Positions 9,366-64,000 of a DNA stretch of 64,000 nt are shown here, piece after piece. The DNA is from a virus. Lineage: Duplodnaviria > Caudoviricetes. Every line of letters begins with the position of its first letter. Within the stretch, counting starts at the first letter, position 1. Made by a program: the position numbers and the translations under genes. The notes beneath the pieces are model-generated. The model was not told where the DNA came from. It made no database searches and worked only from the letters and a program-made list of their open reading frames with translations. Where the stretch lies: the IMG/VR virus record IMGVR_UViG_3300046779_000717, positions 4,197-68,196 of that record, one strand, 5' to 3'.

Positions 9366-9475
9366 AGTCAGGTGGCGGAATGGTAGACGCTACAAGTAAG
9401 TCCAACGATGACCTAAGGCATGATGACCGAAGGAGTTACTGGTTGGTATTACAGGTTCGAATCCTGTCCTGACTA
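9366..9475 (+). ncRNA. tRNA-like element 1 (anticodon arm replaced by extended stem-loop)
   Basis: Acceptor AGTCAGG/CCTGACT, D arm TGGCGGAATGGTAGACGC, T arm ACAGG-TTCGAAT-CCTGT; 60-nt central domain with no 7-nt anticodon loop. Confidence 0.8.
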
Positions 9476-9557: not shown

Positions 9558-9666
9558 AGCCAAGTGGCGAAAGGTTGGGGACGTCCCCGACGTGGTAGTC
9601 GCTATCCTGTAATAAGGAGATGCTGAGTTAAAAACGGCGTTCAAGGTTCGAGTCCTTGCTTGGCTA
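9558..9666 (+). tRNA. Atypical class II (Tyr-like) tRNA with hairpin inserted in the D loop
   Basis: Acceptor AGCCAAG/CTTGGCT, T arm CAAGG-TTCGAGT-CCTTG, long variable arm ATGCTG/CGGCGT; CTGTAA in a misregistered anticodon stem; GTTGGGG-ACGT-CCCCGAC inserted in the D loop. Confidence 0.7.
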
Positions 9667-54169: not shown

Positions 54170-54368
54170 CGCCATGGCCGGCGCGTCGATCATAGTATAT
54201 GACAGATGATTCGGCTATGTCAGATATTACGTCACCACCAACATAAACGACACGAGCCTTGCCGTAGCGTAGCTCGTTCTCGTCCGTGTTTGTCATGATC
54301 AGCCCAGAGGCAGCGGTTGTCTCCTCCTTGATGGGCTCTACTACGATATATTTACCGATTGCTCTCAT
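54099..54368 (-). CDS. groES: Co-chaperonin GroES
   Basis: IGKYIVVEPIKEETTAASGLIM...ARVVYVG...IIQERDVVLV; ATGA-coupled to groEL. Confidence 0.88.
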   Translation of the reverse strand: MRAIGKYIVVEPIKEETTAASGLIMTNTDENELRYGKARVVYVGGDVISDIAESSVIYYDRRAGHGVRIHRLPYHIIQERDVVLVLDSL

Positions 54369-55933
54369 GCTCTTACGTTAGTGATGATACAGTTTGTGCT
54401 TAAGATGGTCGTGGCAACGCTCACCGCGTTCTCCAACGCACTCTTGGTTACTTTCAGTGGGTCGATGATGCCCATCTCGATCATGTTGCCTACCTTTCCG
54501 TCTTTCACGTCGTAGCCATACCCGAACTTACCTTGGTATCCCAAAGCGATCTCGCCCTTGATCTCGTTCGCGTCGTATCCGCCGTTCTCCAAGATCGTGT
54601 TGAAAGGCTGTTGCATTGCGTGCTTGATGATGCTCTTTGCAGTAGAGCAACCGCAGATCTCTCCGGCGATGTTCAACAGTGCAATACCACCACCAGGAAG
54701 AATACCTCCCTCCATAGCGGCCTTGGTCGCGTATACCGCGTCCTCGACCCGGTCTTTCTTTTCTTTCAGCTCAACGTCGCTCTGCGCTCCAACGTAGATA
54801 ACACCAACACCCCCCGCAAGGTTCGCCAAGCGCTCCTCTAAGTGTTTTTTCACGTACTCGTTTGTCTCGTCGGCCAACTTTGCACGGATACCCTCCACGC
54901 GGCTGTCGACACGCTGCGATACCTCGTCGTCTGTCATGATAACAGTGCTGGTAGAGCTAACCACTACTTTCTGTGCGTGACCCAGGTCAGCGAAAGAGAT
55001 CGTGTACAGGTTGTCCCCCGTTCCGTCAGAGATGAACTTTGCACCTGTTGCAGCTGCGATGTCCTCCATGATCTCGGAGCGGTTAGCACCGAAACTAGGT
55101 GGAACGATAGCACAAACCTTGATCACGCCCTTCAGCCTGTTCAAGTTTAAGCTGTTCAATGCGTTCTCGGCCAGCTCAGCAATGATTAATATACTCTTTC
55201 CACTCTGAACTACCGGCGCCAGTAGGTGCTCGATAGAGTTCAAGCTCTGGATCTCCTGGTCAGACACCAACACGTAGCAGTCCTCAAGGATCGCTTCGTT
55301 CTTTTTCTGGTCTGTAACGAAGTACTTGCTGGTCCATCCCCTGTCAAGTTTCATCCCGGAAACAACCTCAGAATAGGTTGTTGCATTGTTTGAGTTCTCG
55401 ACAGTCACAACGCCGTCTTTGCCGACCATTGAGTAGGCGTCAGAGATGATTTGCCCCAGCTCGGGGTCGTTGTTGGCAGAAATGGTAGCCACAGACGCCA
55501 AAGACTCGTCGGTAACTGGTATCGCCATTACGTCCAACGACTGAGCGACAGCTGCTGCAAGCTCCTTGATCTCTCTCAAGACCTTTGTCTTGTTGTCCTC
55601 TGGCTTCATGAACTGCTGAGCGCCATGGATCAGGCCCTGTGTCAGCACAATGCTGGTAGTTGTGCCGTCTCCGGCCGCTGTTGCGGTCCTCTCAGAGGCC
55701 TCACGCATCATCTGCACAGCCAAGTTCTCTGTGGGATCGCTCAAAATGATGGATCTTGCCACACTTACACCGTCTTTTGTGATGTGAAGGCCATGAGTAA
55801 ACTGGTCAGACTCAATCAAAACTGTTTGTCCTCGTGCTCCGAGGGTGCTCTTTACTGCATTCGCGATGGTGTCAATACCAGACACCAGCTTTGCACGGGC
55901 GTCAGCCCCAAATTCAACTTGTTTTACGATCAT
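54365..55933 (-). CDS. groEL: Chaperonin GroEL
   Basis: ITKDGVSVA, AGDGTTTS, KDRVEDAVYATKAA, ILPGGG, GIIDPLKV; start ATG 55933; no GGM tail. Confidence 0.96.
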   Translation of the reverse strand: MIVKQVEFGADARAKLVSGIDTIANAVKSTLGARGQTVLIESDQFTHGLHITKDGVSVARSIILSDPTENLAVQMMREASERTATAAGDGTTTSIVLTQGLIHGAQQFMKPEDNKTKVLREIKELAAAVAQSLDVMAIPVTDESLASVATISANNDPELGQIISDAYSMVGKDGVVTVENSNNATTYSEVVSGMKLDRGWTSKYFVTDQKKNEAILEDCYVLVSDQEIQSLNSIEHLLAPVVQSGKSILIIAELAENALNSLNLNRLKGVIKVCAIVPPSFGANRSEIMEDIAAATGAKFISDGTGDNLYTISFADLGHAQKVVVSSTSTVIMTDDEVSQRVDSRVEGIRAKLADETNEYVKKHLEERLANLAGGVGVIYVGAQSDVELKEKKDRVEDAVYATKAAMEGGILPGGGIALLNIAGEICGCSTAKSIIKHAMQQPFNTILENGGYDANEIKGEIALGYQGKFGYGYDVKDGKVGNMIEMGIIDPLKVTKSALENAVSVATTILSTNCIITNVRA

Positions 55934-55957
55934 AGTAGATTTTATTGGTGCAAATAT

Positions 55958-55983
55958 AAACAAAAATGGGGCCGTAGCCCCAC
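55958..55983 (-). terminator. Rho-independent terminator
   Basis: TGGGGC/GCCCCA stem with U-tract on the minus strand, adjoining the groEL promoter at 55951-55958. Confidence 0.7.
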
Positions 55984-55999
55984 TTTCTGTCAAATTGTC

Positions 56000-57351: not shown

Positions 57352-57486
57352 TCACCATATAAACGTAACACGGATCAAACCAAGGTTGATGTCAAGCTCC
57401 TGATGCTCGCCAGGATAGTTAGACTCAAAGTACTCGACGCCTACCAGAAAGGCGGAGGGAAACAGTAATGCAATTTCAATGCCCAT
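57352..57486 (-). CDS. Small hypothetical protein (44 aa, not in ORF track)
   Basis: MGIEIALLFPSAFLVGVEYFESNYPGEHQELDINLGLIRVTFIW; TACATTTG 4 nt upstream. Confidence 0.7.
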   Translation of the reverse strand: MGIEIALLFPSAFLVGVEYFESNYPGEHQELDINLGLIRVTFIW

Positions 57487-57687
57487 AAGGCAAATGTAAA
57501 CCTAAAAGTTGAGAGTTTCAAGATGTGTTTGTACCTATAGGTATAATACCGGGGAGTATCAGATAAGGGGACTCTTTGGGTTATCCCCCCACATTCTGCG
57601 CCCGGCCCCCGATCGGAAAGTCGATTATTTTGACCCATGCCCCTTGCGTTTTGAAAGTTCGGCCCGAAATTTCTACCTTTTTGGGCG

Positions 57688-57721
57688 GTGCTACCTGTCC
57701 GCCCCTGTGCTACCTGTCCGC
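57688..57721. repeat. 15-bp direct repeat in the GC-rich divergent intergenic region
   Basis: GTGCTACCTGTCCGC at 57688-57702 and 57707-57721. Confidence 0.8.
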
Positions 57722-57877
57722 GCCCGTCAACACGCGGGAAACTGCGGAAACACTGAGGGTTTCCTCTGCATCCTCACACACACGCCTAGATAAACTTTTG
57801 TCCCTGTATCTCGTTGACTGATTTGCGATTTCTTTTAAAAATATTTTGAAAATAATTCAATTATTTTTGTGAAAATG

Positions 57878-57908
57878 TTTGTAGGTATCAACATAAGTAG
57901 TATATTTG
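57878..57908 (+). promoter_or_regulatory. Consensus Bacteroidota early promoter
   Basis: TTTG (57878-81), 19 nt spacer, TATATTTG (57901-08), preceded by an AT-rich UP-like tract. Confidence 0.85.
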
Positions 57909-57931
57909 TGTACCCTTAAGAATTAAACGAC

Positions 57932-58207
57932 ATGAACACACAAATCAACCTAACCGAACTAGAGCAGACCTTGCTCACCGAATTCATTGGAAGTCTTTAT
58001 GCCGAGGAAGGCTATTCAGACGTCGACGCAAAAGACCTTGCACAGGGAACAGGTATCGACATTAAGATAGTACGAGGCGCACTAGGCAGTCTAGTTAAGA
58101 AAGGCATTGTATCAATTGAGACTATGCAAAATTGGGGCGAGAAGGCCTATGAAATTATCTATCTGAACGAGGATTATTGGTACATGCATCCAAGATGGGG
58201 CAAATAG
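57932..58207 (+). CDS. Winged-helix DNA-binding protein, first early gene
   Basis: LTELEQTLL...DAKDLAQGTGIDIKIVRGALGSLVKKGIV. Confidence 0.7.
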   Translation: MNTQINLTELEQTLLTEFIGSLYAEEGYSDVDAKDLAQGTGIDIKIVRGALGSLVKKGIVSIETMQNWGEKAYEIIYLNEDYWYMHPRWGK

Positions 58208-58260
58208 GTTAACTGACGAGTCCTTAATGGACGAAACGGGCAGAGATGCCCGTCTTAACC
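58207..58260 (+). ncRNA. Type I hammerhead ribozyme
   Basis: GGTTAA-CTGACGA-GTCC(TTAAT)GGAC-GAAA-CGGGCA(GAGA)TGCCCG-TC-TTAACC: complete catalytic core and three perfect stems; GUC cleavage after 58254. Confidence 0.95.
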
Positions 58261-58274
58261 AAACCAACAAAGAC

Positions 58275-58457
58275 ATGGAATTCTTATTAATCAACGACGG
58301 CAGAATTGTAAAGGCCAAAAACAAGGTAGAAGCGCTAAGGTCATCGGGCTATGATTTTATCTATTGGGAAGGCAACACACCATATGGTGTAGAATATCCC
58401 GCTAGCAAGCGTAAGGCATACGCCATCAGAAAGCCCAAGAATGCAATTTGGAAATAA
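58275..58457 (+). CDS. Hypothetical protein
   Basis: Start moved to ATG 58275; the tracked start 58227 lies inside the ribozyme. Confidence 0.7.
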   Translation: MEFLLINDGRIVKAKNKVEALRSSGYDFIYWEGNTPYGVEYPASKRKAYAIRKPKNAIWK

Positions 58458-58469
58458 ACACACAAAGAC

Positions 58470-58742
58470 ATGAAAATCTATTCAGTAAAACTCAGCGAAG
58501 ACGGAACTGCTCGTCAAGTTTACACCAACGTCAAGGCGTTGTACAATGGAATCGAGACCTACGGGTACACCCCGAAATCAATACACATTGATGCCAACAA
58601 CGACATGCCTTACAACTACAACAATTTGCTCAAGGCAATCAAGGACTCGTCAAACGATGGTCAGTACTACGCAATCGCATTCATCAACTGCGACAACGGA
58701 AGTGATATAACCATAGTAGAACACGAAATCATATCAAAATAA
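58470..58742 (+). CDS. Hypothetical protein
   Basis: 90 aa early gene. Confidence 0.7.
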   Translation: MKIYSVKLSEDGTARQVYTNVKALYNGIETYGYTPKSIHIDANNDMPYNYNNLLKAIKDSSNDGQYYAIAFINCDNGSDITIVEHEIISK

Positions 58743-58792
58743 ATTTGGTAGACTCAGAAATAATAACTAAAATCGTGAACAATTTAATCAAC

Positions 58793-59191
58793 ATGAATAC
58801 ACTTATGCAAACCCCAAGAAATTTAGTTGCCTTGTTGCGCAACGCGGAGACAAACAACGAAGGTTTCTCCTACAACATCAACAACGGAGACGTAAACCCC
58901 GACAAAGGATTTATGGTATCGCGTATCGGTCACGAAGAGATTGTGCCACAAGGCGCAGACCTAATGGCCTATGGCAAACACTACTTCTATCGCCATGCCG
59001 AGGCATTGGCCGAGAGCAACGCCTACATGGGATGTTGGTACAACGGCAGTCAGTTTGTATTTGACGTATCAGACAACGTACAAACCAAAGAGGTAGCCAT
59101 CGCATTGGGCGAACTGAACAACCAAGAGGCGATTTGGGATTGCGCATCGGGCTCTGAGTACCGATTGATGAGAGAGGGGGACGCGATATGA
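58793..59191 (+). CDS. Conserved-looking early protein (possible SAM-lyase-like fold)
   Basis: EGFS...GFMVS...YMGCW...FDVSD...ALGELNNQEAIWD; start ATG 58793. Confidence 0.6.
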   Translation: MNTLMQTPRNLVALLRNAETNNEGFSYNINNGDVNPDKGFMVSRIGHEEIVPQGADLMAYGKHYFYRHAEALAESNAYMGCWYNGSQFVFDVSDNVQTKEVAIALGELNNQEAIWDCASGSEYRLMREGDAI

Positions 59192-59520
59192 AATACAATT
59201 TAGTAATCAGCAGAACTTACGCCACCGAGATTGAGGTGACCGCAGACAACATGGCAGAGGCATGGGATTGGGTAAACCAAAACAGCGACGCCATCTACGA
59301 AGCAGAGATGGAGCAGTGCAACGTCATCAGCGAGGAGACGGACATGAGAGAGATAGGGCCATCATTGAACGAGGCTGAGGAACTTCTCGACCTTGCTCAG
59401 CACATCGGCCGATATCTTGACAAGTACATTCACGTCTCAAGTTATGTCCCAAAGGAGATGAGAGACATCTTGTCACAAATGGCATCACACGCACAAGAAT
59501 ACTACAACGACGAGGATTAA
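59188..59520 (+). CDS. Hypothetical acidic protein
   Basis: YNLVISRTYATEIEVTADNMAEAWD N-terminal motif. Confidence 0.7.
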   Translation: MKYNLVISRTYATEIEVTADNMAEAWDWVNQNSDAIYEAEMEQCNVISEETDMREIGPSLNEAEELLDLAQHIGRYLDKYIHVSSYVPKEMRDILSQMASHAQEYYNDED

Positions 59521-59527
59521 ATCCTCA

Positions 59528-59572
59528 TCCCAAGCCAAAGGAATGCAGTCAGTTCGAGTCTGACCTTGGGAG
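59528..59572 (+). ncRNA. tRNA-like minihelix 1 (acceptor stem and T arm only)
   Basis: TCCCAAG/CTTGGGA, GTCAG-TTCGAGT-CTGAC, 13-nt linker; intergenic. Confidence 0.8.
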
Positions 59573-59591
59573 CAAATTAATAACACAACAT

Positions 59592-59861
59592 ATGAACATT
59601 CGAACAATTTACGCAAGACAAAAGTCAGCAGGTGTTGACTACATGCAACGACTCATCAACAACGGATCGGTTTGGCAGATGGAAGGGTCAATGGGACGCG
59701 AGGCAATGCGCCTACTAGAGGCAGGCATCTGCATGCTACCAAAGAAATCATTCACCGACCACTACGGCAATCGTGTTCCATCACGTGACGAACTGAAAGG
59801 TTGCACAAAGGGAACATACGCCAATGCGGTTAGGTATTGGTCTAATGGATGGGAGGACTAA
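59592..59861 (+). CDS. Hypothetical protein
   Basis: 89 aa; QRLINNGSVWQMEGSMGREAMRLLEAGICML. Confidence 0.7.
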   Translation: MNIRTIYARQKSAGVDYMQRLINNGSVWQMEGSMGREAMRLLEAGICMLPKKSFTDHYGNRVPSRDELKGCTKGTYANAVRYWSNGWED

Positions 59862-59863
59862 TC

Positions 59864-60052
59864 ATGACATTCGACGAAAGAGTAGACATACTGAAAAGAA
59901 TTGGTTTCACAGAGACCCGTGTTGGGATGACAAATGGAACATATGCATTCCTATGGTATCAGATAGACACGGGTGCGATGAGCGACAAAGAATTTAAAGA
60001 ATATTACAATTCAATGACAAATAAATTAGGTTATCAACAAGATAGTAACTAA
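59864..60052 (+). CDS. Hypothetical protein
   Basis: 62 aa from ATG 59864. Confidence 0.6.
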   Translation: MTFDERVDILKRIGFTETRVGMTNGTYAFLWYQIDTGAMSDKEFKEYYNSMTNKLGYQQDSN

Positions 60053-60080
60053 TATTGCATACCCAAACAAACAAAAAGAT

Positions 60081-60650
60081 ATGGCTAACCATTGTTACAA
60101 TTCAGCAACTATCGAGGGCTCAGAGCAGATGCTCAACCTATTCGAGCAACGCCTCAATGAGGCAACTAAAAGACACCAAGGTTTCTTGTTCCATGCATCA
60201 TTTTACGAAGTGCTTGGTATGGAATCGACTGACGAAGAAACATGGGCAGACTCATATTTCGACCTTGGGTCTAGGTGGTTCTACCCGTTGTGGGAGAGAC
60301 AATCGCCAACCACTGGCGTATTGAGCGGTGACTCTGCGTGGTCGCCAGTATCTGAGTTCTTTCGCAAACTATCTGAGGCATACGAACTGAAGATTGAGTC
60401 AACATACGAAGAATGCGGAGAAAACTTCGGTGGATGGTATGACTGCGTCAACGGAGAGGTAACACGTGACGTAACAACATCATACTTCGCATTCAGATAC
60501 ATGGACGAGGGCGACTACTACATTCAGAACCTAATCGAGGATGCAGAGGATGGATATTGGGAGAGCGCAGATGAACTAGACGAGGACTTGCTCGAGGTGA
60601 TGAGTGACGAGGACAAACAAAGTTTAATTAACGCAATAAACAAGATATGA
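60081..60650 (+). CDS. DUF1281/YubB ferredoxin-like family protein
   Basis: MANHCYNSATIEG...LGSRW...DSAWSPV...YEECGENFGG. Confidence 0.7.
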   Translation: MANHCYNSATIEGSEQMLNLFEQRLNEATKRHQGFLFHASFYEVLGMESTDEETWADSYFDLGSRWFYPLWERQSPTTGVLSGDSAWSPVSEFFRKLSEAYELKIESTYEECGENFGGWYDCVNGEVTRDVTTSYFAFRYMDEGDYYIQNLIEDAEDGYWESADELDEDLLEVMSDEDKQSLINAINKI

Positions 60651-61048
60651 AATACACAACACAAGACAACTTCACGTGGTACACAATTGAACCACACGTG
60701 GCTAGAATCCTACACGACGCAGACTACTGCGTGTATGAACTGCATGACGACGACTCAGAGTCATTGTGTGTAGATGGTCACGAGTTCAGTAACGCTAGCG
60801 GTGTGCGCTACGCCATCGAGACTCCGTCAAACGACGTTATCCATTGCTTGTGCGGAGAGAATGCAATTGCTCCATTCATTGATGGTAATCTTGAGAACTG
60901 CTTTGACGCCATCTTTAGTTATCGCACTGCTGACATCACGTTCTTTGGTCACAACGACGAACTGACAAGTGTGTTGAAGAAATTGTCAAAGTGTGGTGCT
61001 ACCATGTCAATTTCGCCAGCAGAGTTCTTGAGTATAATTGAATTGTAA
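60647..61048 (+). CDS. Hypothetical protein
   Basis: 133 aa, ATGA-coupled. Confidence 0.65.
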   Translation: MKYTTQDNFTWYTIEPHVARILHDADYCVYELHDDDSESLCVDGHEFSNASGVRYAIETPSNDVIHCLCGENAIAPFIDGNLENCFDAIFSYRTADITFFGHNDELTSVLKKLSKCGATMSISPAEFLSIIEL

Positions 61049-61257
61049 TCAACTAGACGTGGCTTGACCGCCACCCTAGTTCAAGCACCGCTATCAGCCC
61101 GATAGCACAAGCCAAGGTGGATCACTTGGGGTGACAAAGTTCTTTGACATATTGGACGATTGTTTGGTGGTCGAATGACCGACCAACTATGTACGCACAC
61201 TTCACTGAGTCTCAGTGATTGAATTGGTATGGAACAGCCAAGGTGATGCGGTGAACA
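61049..61257 (+). ncRNA. Hairpin-dense candidate ncRNA segment
   Basis: Successive hairpins GCTTGA/TCAAGC, GCTATC/GATAGC, TTGGTGGTC/GACCGACCAA, TCACTGAG/CTCAGTGA; no credible + strand ORF. Confidence 0.5.
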
Positions 61258-61304
61258 GCACGGGATATGAACGGATATATGGGGTTCAAATCCCCACCCG
61301 TGCG
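61258..61304 (+). ncRNA. tRNA-like minihelix 2
   Basis: GCACGGG/CCCGTGC, TGGGG-TTCAAAT-CCCCA, 15-nt linker ATATGAACGGATATA. Confidence 0.8.
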
Positions 61305-61308
61305 CAAA

Positions 61309-61382
61309 GGTCAGCCAGCACTGACCCTCAACGATAGGTTGAAAAGTCATGATATTGAAAACGGGTGACTGCTGGGTCACCC
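61309..61382 (+). ncRNA. Kissing-loop RNA
   Basis: GGTCAG-CCAGCA-CTGACC and GGGTGAC-TGCTGG-GTCACCC; the two loops are exact complements. Confidence 0.7.
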
Positions 61383-61387
61383 TATAT

Positions 61388-61509
61388 AGCAGAGTGGCGA
61401 CATGGTTGTCGCATGAGAGATGATGGACTAATTGCCATCCCTGTTGCATAGCAGAAAGTAGCTTAAATAAAGCGCTCATTTGCAGGTTCGAGTCCTGCCT
61501 CTGCTACCA
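61388..61509 (+). ncRNA. tRNA-like element with branched 57-nt insert replacing the anticodon loop, CCA encoded
   Basis: AGCAGAG/CTCTGCT+ACCA, D arm GCGAC-ATGGTT-GTCGC, ATGAG/CTCAT stem, T arm GCAGG-TTCGAGT-CCTGC. Confidence 0.8.
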
Positions 61510-61511
61510 CT

Positions 61512-61880
61512 ATGAGATTGACAAATGGTAAGTTCTACGATGGGGACAAGGAAGTCCCTCTAGAGTTCGGAAATCGGGAGCAGATTGAACTGCTCAAGAC
61601 GGCTATCGCCGAGGCCGAGAAAGGCCACAAAGTTAATGTCAACACAAACGAGAAGGTAACTTATAAGTTATCAATGGATTGGAAGTGTTGCAAATGTTTC
61701 AAGTTAAACGTGGATGACGATTGGAATGAGTACGAAGACTGGGAGCCAGACTTTGACGACATCCAGTGCTTCATTGAAGACAACATAGAATGCTCACATT
61801 GTGGGCAGGAACACAAACTAGTAGTAGACAAGACAAATAGATTTAGCCCACAATATTATGTTCAAGCAGAAACTGACTAA
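61512..61880 (+). CDS. Zinc-ribbon-containing protein
   Basis: CCKC...CSHC. Confidence 0.7.
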   Translation: MRLTNGKFYDGDKEVPLEFGNREQIELLKTAIAEAEKGHKVNVNTNEKVTYKLSMDWKCCKCFKLNVDDDWNEYEDWEPDFDDIQCFIEDNIECSHCGQEHKLVVDKTNRFSPQYYVQAETD

Positions 61881-62091
61881 CGAATTCCCCTCCATCGTGA
61901 TAGTGGAGGATGCCTGCACAAAGGGTTACGGAGATTGCTTTTGTGTAGAGTCGACTGGCCGTGACAAAAACGGATTTCCCATCATTAGTAGGAGCGTTGG
62001 AAACTCTGAGAGTTTCGATAGTTTCCTATTTAACAACGACTACTTCTGCGAGTTTATAGAAGAGAACAGAGTAATGATTTGTAAAGAATGA
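61858..62091 (+). CDS. Hypothetical protein
   Basis: 77 aa, overlapping operon. Confidence 0.55.
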   Translation: MFKQKLTNEFPSIVIVEDACTKGYGDCFCVESTGRDKNGFPIISRSVGNSESFDSFLFNNDYFCEFIEENRVMICKE

Positions 62092-62270
62092 TATACTATG
62101 CAAGACATTCTTGGGAGGCCAAAGACATACTTCTCAAGGCCAACGGATGCCAATCGGAGACACTTACGCTTGACGTAAAAGAGGACGGCTACACATTGTG
62201 TGACCCAGTTAATGACGAAAATATTGTAATAATTTGCGACAATGAATACCCGACTATTAAAGAAGATTAA
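62088..62270 (+). CDS. Hypothetical protein
   Basis: 60 aa, ATGA-coupled. Confidence 0.6.
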   Translation: MIYYARHSWEAKDILLKANGCQSETLTLDVKEDGYTLCDPVNDENIVIICDNEYPTIKED

Positions 62271-62454
62271 AAAAAGATATGTATACTTTTGGCACAAAAA
62301 CCAACTACATTCTTACGACAAGAAGAAGCAAGAGGTTGTGCATAAGAACATGTCGACCCAGTACTGGATGATACGCAATGCGTGTGGCCCATTCACAGCA
62401 GAGAAATTTCTAAAGAGAGTATATGAACAAGCAACTAAAAGACCTGTGCATTAA
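62242..62454 (+). CDS. Hypothetical basic protein
   Basis: MNTRLLKKIKKRY N-terminus. Confidence 0.6.
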   Translation: MNTRLLKKIKKRYVYFWHKNQLHSYDKKKQEVVHKNMSTQYWMIRNACGPFTAEKFLKRVYEQATKRPVH

Positions 62455-62626
62455 TTTGGTGCATCGGTATCAAACGGGAGACATTGAATTGTTTGAGGAA
62501 GCAGTTCAGATGTTACAAGAGGCGGTCGAGGACTACATGGACTCACACCCAAGGCTAAAGCAAGACACCACAGAGTGGGACTTTGAGCAACTATTTTTAA
62601 ACATATTAAGAGATGAACAAGACTAA
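62423..62626 (+). CDS. Hypothetical protein
   Basis: 67 aa, helical. Confidence 0.6.
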   Translation: MNKQLKDLCINLVHRYQTGDIELFEEAVQMLQEAVEDYMDSHPRLKQDTTEWDFEQLFLNILRDEQD

Positions 62627-62783
62627 AGCATTATTGATGACAGCCATCACGTTATTGCTGGCCATCGCATTTGTTGTGCTGTGTATTTACAGCCCGTTAT
62701 TTTTCATGTGGTTCGTGCTTGTATTGAGCGCAACTATTTTCACTTACTCAGCATTCAAGGTATGGTATACACGTGGGTCTTAA
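62613..62783 (+). CDS. Small two-TM membrane protein (56 aa, not in ORF track)
   Basis: MNKTKALLMTAITLLLAIAFVVLCIYSPLFFMWFVLVLSATIFTYSAFKVWYTRGS. Confidence 0.65.
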   Translation: MNKTKALLMTAITLLLAIAFVVLCIYSPLFFMWFVLVLSATIFTYSAFKVWYTRGS

Positions 62784-62968
62784 CTGAGGACGGGCAGATC
62801 GTTTGTGGGTTCACACAGAAGCCAACAGAGGACGAGATGCTTGACACAATAAACGCCGTCACTGGATACGAGGGCAAGTTCTTGGACAGACTGACGGAGA
62901 GTACGTATGTCTGGGCATACGACGACATGACAACAGAGGTATCACTATTTCAAACAGAACTAATATGA
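62762..62968 (+). CDS. Hypothetical protein
   Basis: MVYTWVLTEDGQIVCG...; start moved to 62762. Confidence 0.6.
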   Translation: MVYTWVLTEDGQIVCGFTQKPTEDEMLDTINAVTGYEGKFLDRLTESTYVWAYDDMTTEVSLFQTELI

Positions 62969-63012
62969 CAAACAATAAACAAAAAACGGCAGTAGAAAAA
63001 ATAAAATTATGA
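62965..63012 (+). pseudogene. 15-codon remnant of the MTNNKQ-TAVE family
   Basis: MTNNKQKTAVEKIKL-stop, ATGA-coupled to 63009. Confidence 0.55.
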
Positions 63013-63191
63013 TAGATTTAGATAAAGCAAAATTCATCGGAGAAGGTGAATGGGTTAAAGATTCCGCATACCAAGTGTATGAATTGGATGGTAAGTATTA
63101 TTCCGTTATAGTAATTGGACATAGTAATAAAGAAATTATGAATGATTCTATAACTGAAATAAAATTTGAAGACATAAATTTTTATATTTAA
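63009..63191 (+). CDS. Hypothetical protein
   Basis: 60 aa, AT-rich. Confidence 0.6.
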   Translation: MIDLDKAKFIGEGEWVKDSAYQVYELDGKYYSVIVIGHSNKEIMNDSITEIKFEDINFYI

Positions 63192-63196
63192 AAGCA

Positions 63197-63478
63197 ATGA
63201 CAAACAATAAACAACAAACGGCAGTGGAGTGGTATCGTATAAAAATAAGCAGTTTGACTAGTGATTTATTTAAGGAAAAAATCAGTGGCGAACAATTTCG
63301 CAATCTAGAAAAAGAGGCATACGAACAAGCCAAAGAAATGGAGAAGGAAATAATAATTGATGCAATAATTACTTGTGAAAAAGAACACTATGTACATAGT
63401 AAAGTTTATCCACCACAATTTGTAATTAATAAAGCAGAACAATATTATAATAATAAATACGAAAATGAAAAACAATAA
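63197..63478 (+). CDS. MTNNKQQTAVEW family protein
   Basis: QTAVEWY...EQAKEMEKEIIIDA...AEQYYN. Confidence 0.75.
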   Translation: MTNNKQQTAVEWYRIKISSLTSDLFKEKISGEQFRNLEKEAYEQAKEMEKEIIIDAIITCEKEHYVHSKVYPPQFVINKAEQYYNNKYENEKQ

Positions 63479-63656
63479 AAAACAAACTAATAGATTTTTA
63501 ACATTTTTTCTGTCATTAATATTGATTTACTTAATGGCATCTGCTTCAATGTGGGATTTTAATCCATCTCACTGGAACAAAGCATTTACAAGTATGTTGG
63601 CAATATTTTCGTGTTGCATAATTATGCTTATTGTTCAATTTAAAAAATTAAATTAA
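63465..63656 (+). CDS. Small membrane protein
   Basis: Two hydrophobic segments flanking WDFNPSHW. Confidence 0.65.
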   Translation: MKNNKKQTNRFLTFFLSLILIYLMASASMWDFNPSHWNKAFTSMLAIFSCCIIMLIVQFKKLN

Positions 63657-63658
63657 TC

Positions 63659-63886
63659 ATGACAAACAATGAACAACAAACCGCGGTTGAGTGGTTGATT
63701 GGACAATTACACCGTAAATACGGCGGTACTGATTTTTTTTGGACTAATATGGATGAAATTGAACAAGCAAAAGAAATGGAAAAGCAACAAATCATTGATG
63801 CTTATCATACAAATCCTTTGGAAGCAAAGTGGAAAAATATAGGCGTTAACTACTACAACGAAACCTACGGAGGAGGTGAGCAATGA
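63659..63886 (+). CDS. MTNNKQQTAVEW family protein
   Basis: QTAVEWL...EQAKEMEKQQIIDAY...YYNETY. Confidence 0.75.
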   Translation: MTNNEQQTAVEWLIGQLHRKYGGTDFFWTNMDEIEQAKEMEKQQIIDAYHTNPLEAKWKNIGVNYYNETYGGGEQ

Positions 63887-64000
63887 CAAACAATAAACAA
63901 CAAACGGCAGTGGAGTGGTTGGTTGAGCAATTTAAAGAATATGATTTTGCTGATGTAAAAGACACAGAAAATTACATTATTAAAATGCAATCTTTTGTAT
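63883..64000 (+). CDS. MTNNKQQTAVEW family protein, truncated by the window end
   Basis: ATGACAAACAATAAACAACAAACGGCAGTGGAGTGGTTG, open to 64000. Confidence 0.7.
   Translation, partial: MTNNKQQTAVEWLVEQFKEYDFADVKDTENYIIKMQSFV

Follow-up and report, generated by a model that had tools for sequence, protein, structure and literature searches.

A tRNA-like acceptor/T-arm minihelix between early genes of a crAss-like phage as a candidate t-element-like processing site

Anatomy and setting of minihelix 1

What does the top half of a tRNA, lacking the parts that decode, do between two protein-coding genes of a phage? The question arises in the window, that is, the whole stretch of DNA analysed here, which makes up 64 kb of an IMG/VR virus record that is 68,196 bp long and was judged complete. 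The original prediction described an element of acceptor and T arm only, in which a 13-nt linker replaces the D and anticodon arms, and placed it between a stop codon (59520) and a start codon (59592). The sequence and its RNAfold structure bear out this anatomy, and the coordinates of the ORFs agree with the placement. The features of the locus are as follows.

58745–59191, + strand: 148-aa ORF
59188–59520, + strand: upstream 110-aa ORF of no family, with the stop codon TAA at 59518–59520
59521–59527, + strand: 7-nt spacer ATCCTCA, the presumed 5′ leader of minihelix 1
59528–59534, + strand: 5′ strand of the acceptor stem, TCCCAAG, beginning with U1; 7/7 paired with 59565–59571
59535–59547, + strand: 13-nt linker CCAAAGGAATGCA, in place of D stem, anticodon arm and variable loop
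59548–59564, + strand: T arm, with stem GTCAG/CTGAC and loop TTCGAGT
59565–59571, + strand: 3′ strand of the acceptor stem, CTTGGGA
59572, + strand: discriminator G73, with a predicted RNase Z cut just 3′ of it
59573–59591, + strand: 19-nt A/C-rich trailer of minihelix 1, which is also the leader of the 89-aa ORF
59592–59861, + strand: downstream 89-aa ORF, phrog_3908

Minihelix 1 (59528–59572) is 45 nt long, with a 7-bp acceptor stem, the linker, a 5-bp T stem closed by a 7-nt loop and the discriminator G, after which CAAA follows. The minimum-free-energy fold given by RNAfold is identical to the proposed tRNA top half (−13.6 kcal/mol). Since the z-score of the fold energy is only −1.66 and 12 of 200 shuffled sequences were equally stable, thermodynamics alone is not distinctive for minihelix 1. 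On the other hand, a strict shape search (acceptor stem 7/7 and T stem 5/5 paired, loop TTYRA.., gap of 6–30 nt) found two occurrences in the genome, at 59528–59572 and 61258–61304, against 0.06 expected per shuffled genome. The excess over chance lies in the motif and its conservation, not in the fold energy.

ARAGORN at default settings called 0 tRNA genes and no tmRNA in the window, Rfam at gathering thresholds gave no match in the window, and the Rfam tRNA model (RF00005) had no match at E ≤ 10 in 59400–59700, where the E-value mode of Rfam returned noise only. A canonical tRNA cloverleaf (RF00005) was rejected on these results and because only 13 nt separate the acceptor and T stems. The features of a partial tRNA are all present, namely the 7-bp acceptor stem, the 5-bp T stem, a loop of the form TTCRANY and an unpaired discriminator. 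The shape of an RNase P minihelix substrate is present as well, with about 12 stacked base pairs, a T loop and a 5′ leader that does not pair with position 73; A(−1) and G73 are unpaired, but the 3′ end is CAA, not CCA. A 'perfect type I hammerhead' that had also been proposed, at 58207–58260, did not hold up, as no Rfam hammerhead family matched at E ≤ 1 within 57400–64000.

The genome encodes a portal, a terminase, major virion proteins, a crAss 'muzzle' domain, a BT4734-type primase and three very large proteins of 1,951–2,767 aa, together with a full-length phage GroEL of 542 aa (54365–55993, − strand; E 3.5e-124 to an ancestral Fibrobacteres-Chlorobi-Bacteroidetes chaperonin). This gene content, including the muzzle domain, the primase and GroEL, marks the phage as crAss-like and makes a Bacteroidota host probable. 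The phage GroEL is a useful host hint. An archaeal host with bulge-helix-bulge introns was rejected, since the GroEL is bacterial and nearest to the Fibrobacteres-Chlorobi-Bacteroidetes chaperonin. Sequencing runs containing DNA of this phage were mostly freshwater metagenomes. No integrase, reverse transcriptase or tRNA-processing enzyme was found by Pfam among 63 small and medium and 9 larger ORFs, and YrlA/Ro and tRNA-enzyme partners were rejected because no such domain occurs in the scanned ORFs.

Minihelix 1 is set in a block of small + strand early ORFs, and PHROGs and Pfam gave no function for the two that flank it. The Bacteroidota −7 motif TAnnTTTG does not occur on the + strand of 58748–62283, nor was a terminator-like site found on the + strand; because promoter motif and nearby terminator are both absent, minihelix 1 most likely lies inside an early polycistronic mRNA.

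Conservation, covariation and likeness to tRNA-Asn

Eleven distinct homologues of minihelix 1 were found, and the structure is kept in all of them. Five related contigs were retrieved through the downstream ORF; two keep minihelix 1, one has another minihelix in the slot and two are without. A metagenome pattern scan in which the T stem was left free added 13 further copies, and scans with linker and T loop, both stems being free, found one copy in the crAss-like relative G007 and one in the unrelated phage G006. A covariance model (R1) of minihelix 1 was built from nine distinct sequences. The homolog search with a covariance model, as the original prediction had proposed, turned up one more copy each in G007 and contig L043. 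On the + strand R1 scores 72 bits, on the − strand 12 bits.

In the nine aligned sequences, 100% of the cells hold standard pairs, a value that is partly due to selection, since the acceptor stem was fixed in the metagenome pattern and matches to the linker pattern were kept only if paired. Seven of the 12 pairs changed on both sides; 0 of 500 shuffles reached the observed values, and slid controls gave 0–1. The covarying acceptor pairs are 1, 5 and 6 (acceptor variants TCCCAAG, TCCCGTG and CCCCATG). In the T stem, whose covariation in the metagenome set was unconstrained by the search pattern, four of the five pairs changed on both sides (GTCAG/CTGAC, GTCGG/CCGAC, GTATG/CATAC, GTCTG/CAGAC and ACCCG/CGGGT), and the T loop TTCGAGT is invariant in the aligned relatives. 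Furthermore, identity across five syntenic loci was 96.4% in minihelix 1, versus 61.8% in the upstream coding flank (last 150 nt of the upstream ORF), 50.8% in the leader and 89.2% in the downstream coding flank (first 150 nt of the downstream ORF). Minihelix 1 is the best-conserved stretch of its neighbourhood. The original prediction was to be given up if related phages did not conserve the element; they conserve it, with compensatory changes.

The 3′ end is encoded as A73-CCA, or as T73- or C73-CCA, in most relatives, and a G73-CAA end is found in the window copy and four others. In G007 and L043, one genome holds multiple copies with different acceptor stems. A pair between positions −1 and 73 is possible in three copies (L043b, G007b and G006). 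Conservation, compensation and the N73-CCA end of most relatives support a selected tRNA-mimic RNA, to judge from these alignments, which may be a processing site, a small RNA or both.

The surroundings of the copies are constant in some respects and variable in others. In 12 of 15 copies a spacer of exactly 7 nt separates stop codon and minihelix; the last four bases of the spacer are mostly CCCA, CCAA or CACA, with A at −1 in nearly all copies. After the discriminator, an A/C-rich leader runs to the next ATG, which lies 2–5 nt away in three copies and 17–24 nt away in 11. The gene 5′ of the minihelix is the 110-aa ORF or a homologue of the 148-aa ORF: the 110-aa ORF has homologues in L039 and L041 (a pattern scan of IMG/VR found no relative of the protein), and in G005, L036, L043 and G007 it is absent and the 148-aa ORF homologue lies directly 5′. 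The gene on the 3′ side varies, with at least five unrelated ORFs. Since the flanking genes differ and G006 has no common neighbour, no protein partner travels with the minihelix; a conserved partner gene was rejected because none is common with G006. A recurring trailer, CCAACTTAA(n)AAC..., was observed 3′ of the CCA end of both minihelix types and before the next ATG, downstream of copies in L036, L043, L047, L048, G007 and L003; it may serve as leader, processing site or promoter for the phage polymerase.

Among 50,697 phage records, neither megablast with the early region nor blastn with minihelix 1 revealed a cultured phage that carries minihelix 1, and the sole blastn matches to it were T arms of phage tRNA-Leu genes. 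R1 had no match at E ≤ 0.001 among 151 genomes sampled from the phylum to which a Bacteroidota MAG belongs, and it gave no convincing match in four genomes that carry a matching tRNA-Asn. Scanning the linker motif with the T-loop variant TTCAANT returned unpaired chance matches only, and six of the matches of the TTCGANT linker scan were also due to chance.

The origin of the acceptor stem was traced with a scan for TCCCAAG, T loop and CTTGGGA at normal tRNA spacing in one genome for each of 185,579 species. The 40 genomic matches include 36 tRNAs, 30 of which are tRNA-Asn(GUU), nearly all with G73. The matching tRNA-Asn genes of Bacteroidota, Ignavibacteriota and Kapaibacteria have G73 followed by CAA or CTA and no encoded CCA. 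Minihelix 1 shares with bacterial tRNA-Asn(GUU) an identical UCCCAAG/CUUGGGA stem, U1-A72, G73 and a UUCGAGU-type T loop; it differs in lacking the D stem, anticodon arm and variable loop and so cannot decode. [quoted passage not shown] AsnRS requires the anticodon, and charging of minihelix 1 is for that reason not expected.

Further minihelices, tRNA-like RNAs and the conserved linker

Minihelix 1 has company, both in the window and at the same slot in relatives. The features concerned are as follows.

61258–61304, + strand: minihelix 2, GCACGGG / 15 nt / TGGGG TTCAAAT CCCCA / CCCGTGC / G, then CAAA
61388–61509: tRNA-like gene ending ACCA; 33.1 bits with the Rfam tRNA model (gathering threshold 29), in E-value mode only
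9366–9475 and 9558–9666: two tRNA frames, with 7-bp acceptor stems, class-II-like D arms and T arms
G002, 61365–61406 (L003); G001, 4508–4468; G004, 4366–4325: 6+6-bp minihelix
G006 (L064), 1104–1148, − strand: copy of minihelix 1

Minihelix 2 has the same design as minihelix 1 and an unrelated sequence. It is kept in four relatives (G001–G004), with a compensatory change from C-G to T-A in the acceptor stem, and its linker measures 15, 6 or 0 nt among the copies; the mascRNA model gave a weak, sub-threshold match to it (21.3 bits, E 0.96). In G002, the slot of minihelix 1 is occupied by a minihelix of unrelated sequence with 6+6 bp, ACCACG / 11 nt / GAGGGG TTCAATT CCCCTC / CGTGGT / T. The 6+6-bp minihelix begins at the last A of the upstream stop codon. 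Since an unrelated minihelix fills this slot and minihelix 2 tolerates linkers of 15, 6 and 0 nt, the shape rather than the sequence is kept. The compared sequences point to the minihelices being a class and not a single sequence, in which a 12-bp stack with a T loop persists.

The region 61049–61509 is an ORF-free cluster of structured RNAs that comprises hairpins, minihelix 2 and the tRNA-like gene, and its hairpins show compensatory changes between relatives, for example GGTCAG...CTGACC versus GGCTAG...CTAGCC. A 132-aa ORF called at 61081–61479 on the − strand, over the minihelix 2 region, is probably spurious. The tRNA-like gene carries a 57-nt insert in place of the anticodon loop; in contigs from another sample, 61406–61480 is swapped for 37 different bases and the acceptor, D and T frame is kept. 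The two tRNA frames have oversized centres of 77–78 nt, are both followed by ACAAA and were called by ARAGORN only as 'intron' tRNAs. The G005 homologue of the frame at 9366–9475 is an 88-nt tRNA with an 8-nt anticodon loop.

In the minihelix 1 family the linker is far less free. Its motif, CCAnnGGnATGC, has ten invariant positions in nine distinct sequences, G006 among them, including C8, C9, A10, G13, G14, A16, T17, G18 and C19. G006 is a 51%-GC fragment with Shine-Dalgarno sites and four ordinary tRNA genes; tblastx against the window genome gave no match, so that protein similarity between the two is not detectable, and none of the proteins neighbouring the minihelix copies is common to G006 and the other carriers. 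The G006 copy has G(−1) opposite C73, followed by CCA, a hallmark of the tRNA-His acceptor; it is seen in this copy only and may be chance. Histidine identity through a −1:73 pair was rejected as a family feature on the same ground.

The central GG of the linker may stand in for G18-G19 of the D loop, dock on the T loop and rebuild the tRNA elbow. No copy varies at this GG, which leaves covariation without a handle on the elbow contact. As minihelix 2 has bare hairpin versions, the conservation of the linker exceeds what a bare RNase P site needs, and such strict conservation, extending to G006, hints at an additional or different ligand. The original prediction had the anatomy right; the tRNA-Asn origin, the conservation of the linker and the reach to an unrelated phage had escaped it.

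Possible roles of the minihelix

The reading that we favour, to which we give a probability of about one half, is by analogy with t-elements: minihelix 1 may be a cut site for host RNase P and for RNase Z with the CCA-adding enzyme, whose cutting would also release a small CCA-ended RNA. An early polycistronic mRNA of the phage would contain minihelix 1 in its interior, and host tRNA maturation enzymes would treat the minihelix as a pre-tRNA, as with the t-elements of plant mitochondria. RNase P would cut at 59527/59528, leaving an upstream message that ends 7 nt past its stop codon, and RNase Z would cut 3′ of G59572; in relatives that encode CCA, trimming by an endonuclease and an exonuclease would take the place of RNase Z. 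After the 3′ cut the downstream gene would be free, behind a short A/C-rich leader without structure, and the released RNA, about 45–48 nt long, would be completed by the CCA-adding enzyme. These enzymes read the D-loop/T-loop elbow, which the conserved linker with its GG probably rebuilds. We infer transcription as a single unit, each of the cleavage steps, the elbow contact and the benefit to the phage. The G-CAA end of minihelix 1 resembles, in its sequence, the tRNA genes of the host group, which need RNase Z and CCA addition.

Plant-mitochondrial t-elements set mRNA ends through RNase P and RNase Z (Forner et al. 2007, PMC1920247), and they are CCA-tailed, base-modified and not aminoacylated (PMC11658184). 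Like them (also Hanic-Joyce 1990), minihelix 1 is apparently tRNA-derived and non-decoding, would lie in mRNA beside coding regions and has a conserved T arm and acceptor stem, whereas t-elements are mostly near-complete cloverleaves of an organelle and minihelix 1 is a 45-nt top half with a 13-nt linker from a phage. The t-element search motif GGTTCRANYCC is matched at only 9 of 11 positions, because the 52–62 pair is A-U. What makes minihelix 1 t-element-like is a tRNA-derived fold of acceptor and T arm beside a coding region, with its structure under selection.

Minihelices suffice for RNase P and the CCA-adding enzyme, and McClain, Guerrier-Takada and Altman reportedly established in 1987 that acceptor/T-arm minihelices are RNase P substrates. 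Minihelix 1 has in common with such laboratory substrates the 12-bp coaxial helix, the T loop and the single-stranded N73(CCA) end; they are constructs, whereas minihelix 1 is natural, conserved and equipped with an extra conserved linker. The comparison with mascRNA made in the original prediction stands as an analogy and fails as family membership. Both mascRNA/MEN-beta and minihelix 1 are tRNA-like modules, and RNase P and RNase Z release mascRNA from a longer transcript before it is CCA-tailed; it is, however, eukaryotic, folds into a cloverleaf that includes an anticodon-like arm, and sets the 3′ end of a lncRNA. Membership of mascRNA-menRNA (RF01684; gathering score 42.5 bits) was rejected because the Rfam model had no match to 59528–59572. 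The tRNA-like domain of tmRNA likewise joins its acceptor stem and T arm to a D-loop analogue that lacks a stem, but it has the alanine identity pair G3:U70 and several hundred nucleotides between its halves; it was rejected for minihelix 1, which has C3-G70, is contiguous over 45 nt and drew no tmRNA call from ARAGORN. Among phage RNAs, the C4 antisense RNA of P1/P7 and the M3 RNA of phi80 are matured by host RNase P by way of a tRNA-like acceptor end. They differ in being regulatory RNAs with other bodies, and we know of no intergenic family of T-arm/acceptor minihelices described among phage RNase P substrates of this type.

With only about two sites among about 20 early genes, the minihelices are not general punctuation. 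Such scarcity per genome, like the strong conservation of the linker, is not accounted for by simple punctuation and leaves room for a released RNA that acts in trans. The released CCA-ended minihelix might itself be the product, a decoy or sponge in trans for a factor that reads the acceptor end or the elbow, with mRNA cutting merely its biogenesis; we hold this to be unlikely, though worth keeping in view. Its target could be an antiphage toxin that alters or cleaves the 3′ CCA or the acceptor stem, such as a toxSAS toxin (FaRel2/CapRel), a nucleotidyltransferase of the MenT/AbiEii kind or a tRNase that cuts acceptors, or else a host tRNA enzyme. The position in an early, mosaic region of accessory genes would suit such a role, as would the specific tRNA-Asn-like acceptor stem with G73, the encoded CCA end of most copies, the several copies with different acceptor stems in G007 and in L043, and a linker conserved beyond the need of a cut site even in the unrelated G006. 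Toxins that read acceptor stems exist, and minihelices have been used to study FaRel2 (PMC11559606, PMC10435456). However, acceptor stems and discriminators (A, G, T and C) vary freely between copies, a poor fit to one target; a single-copy gene within an mRNA would be at low stoichiometry against the cellular tRNA pool, and no defence system or partner gene is linked. We are slightly more doubtful of a wider form, a horizontally mobile family of CCA-ended 'half-tRNAs' that act in trans and titrate a host factor reading acceptor ends, such as an antiphage toxin. Here the conserved GG linker would supply a genuine tRNA elbow, and the acceptor end of tRNA-Asn type would allow binding of that factor. 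If it were true, the half-tRNA would act as an anti-defence decoy of RNA, and the host itself would produce it with its tRNA-processing enzymes.

An uncleaved structure in the mRNA, serving as a 3′ cap against exonucleases or tuning termination and re-initiation between the two ORFs, would account for the 7-nt spacing in 12 of 15 copies, which puts the minihelix at the mouth of a terminating ribosome, and for a downstream start 2–5 or 17–24 nt away. A plain hairpin would suffice for this, however, whereas recognition by tRNA enzymes is suggested by a T loop that never varies, stems of 7+5 bp, a free N73-CCA and the identity as tRNA-Asn. The constant spacing may be inherited with a module of stop codon, spacer and minihelix; we rate this alternative as improbable. 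Lower still stands a role at the DNA level. The minihelix could mark a recombination hotspot or the border of a module, derive in the manner of attP from the 3′ end of a host tRNA-Asn, or form a hairpin that signals to the phage polymerase. Downstream genes differ between strains, 59572 is the precise breakpoint of a DNA contig from another sample, and the 3′ strand with G-CAAA resembles the ends of tRNA-Asn genes in the host group; yet any conserved intergenic sequence can be expected to acquire mosaic borders as a side effect. The T arm with the 3′ half of the acceptor stem had 0 matches in the genomes of the 185,579 species, and minihelix 1 was for that reason not copied from a known host gene end. 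Together with the lack of an integrase domain among 63 ORFs in the Pfam scan, this led us to reject an attP copy of a host tRNA 3′ end. In addition, the 5′ acceptor strand and the compensatory changes would have no function in an att core, and the model strongly favours the + strand. Finally, minihelix 1 could be a functionless relic of a phage tRNA-Asn gene after internal deletion, as its acceptor stem and discriminator, the odd tRNA-like genes of the same genome, which suggest decay of tRNA genes, and the two relatives without it at the slot might suggest. But it is the most conserved segment of the region, seven pairs are doubly compensated and none is broken, and the same deletion product with the same linker recurs in the unrelated G006. 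The covariation largely refutes a relic, which we consider scarcely credible.

For the favoured t-element-like cut site, precedents come from elsewhere: to our knowledge, the demonstrated cases of message cutting through a tRNA mimic are limited to organelles (t-elements) and a few nuclear lncRNAs. No account of acceptor/T-arm minihelices lying between genes of phages came up in full-text literature searches, and a large survey of structured RNAs in viruses holds only 'tRNA or tRNA-like' candidates that overlap ARAGORN calls (PMC10690425). Minihelices are missed by tRNA finders and by Rfam and hence go unannotated, and ORF callers may overcall across them, as with the 132-aa minus-strand ORF across minihelix 2. 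Minihelix 1 is a clean test object, with a traceable tRNA-Asn origin, variants with and without encoded CCA and natural compensatory mutants, and its conserved linker may reveal how little it takes to rebuild a tRNA elbow. Should minihelices of this kind be cut by host RNase P and RNase Z, tRNA mimicry would be a compact, protein-free punctuation of phage messages.
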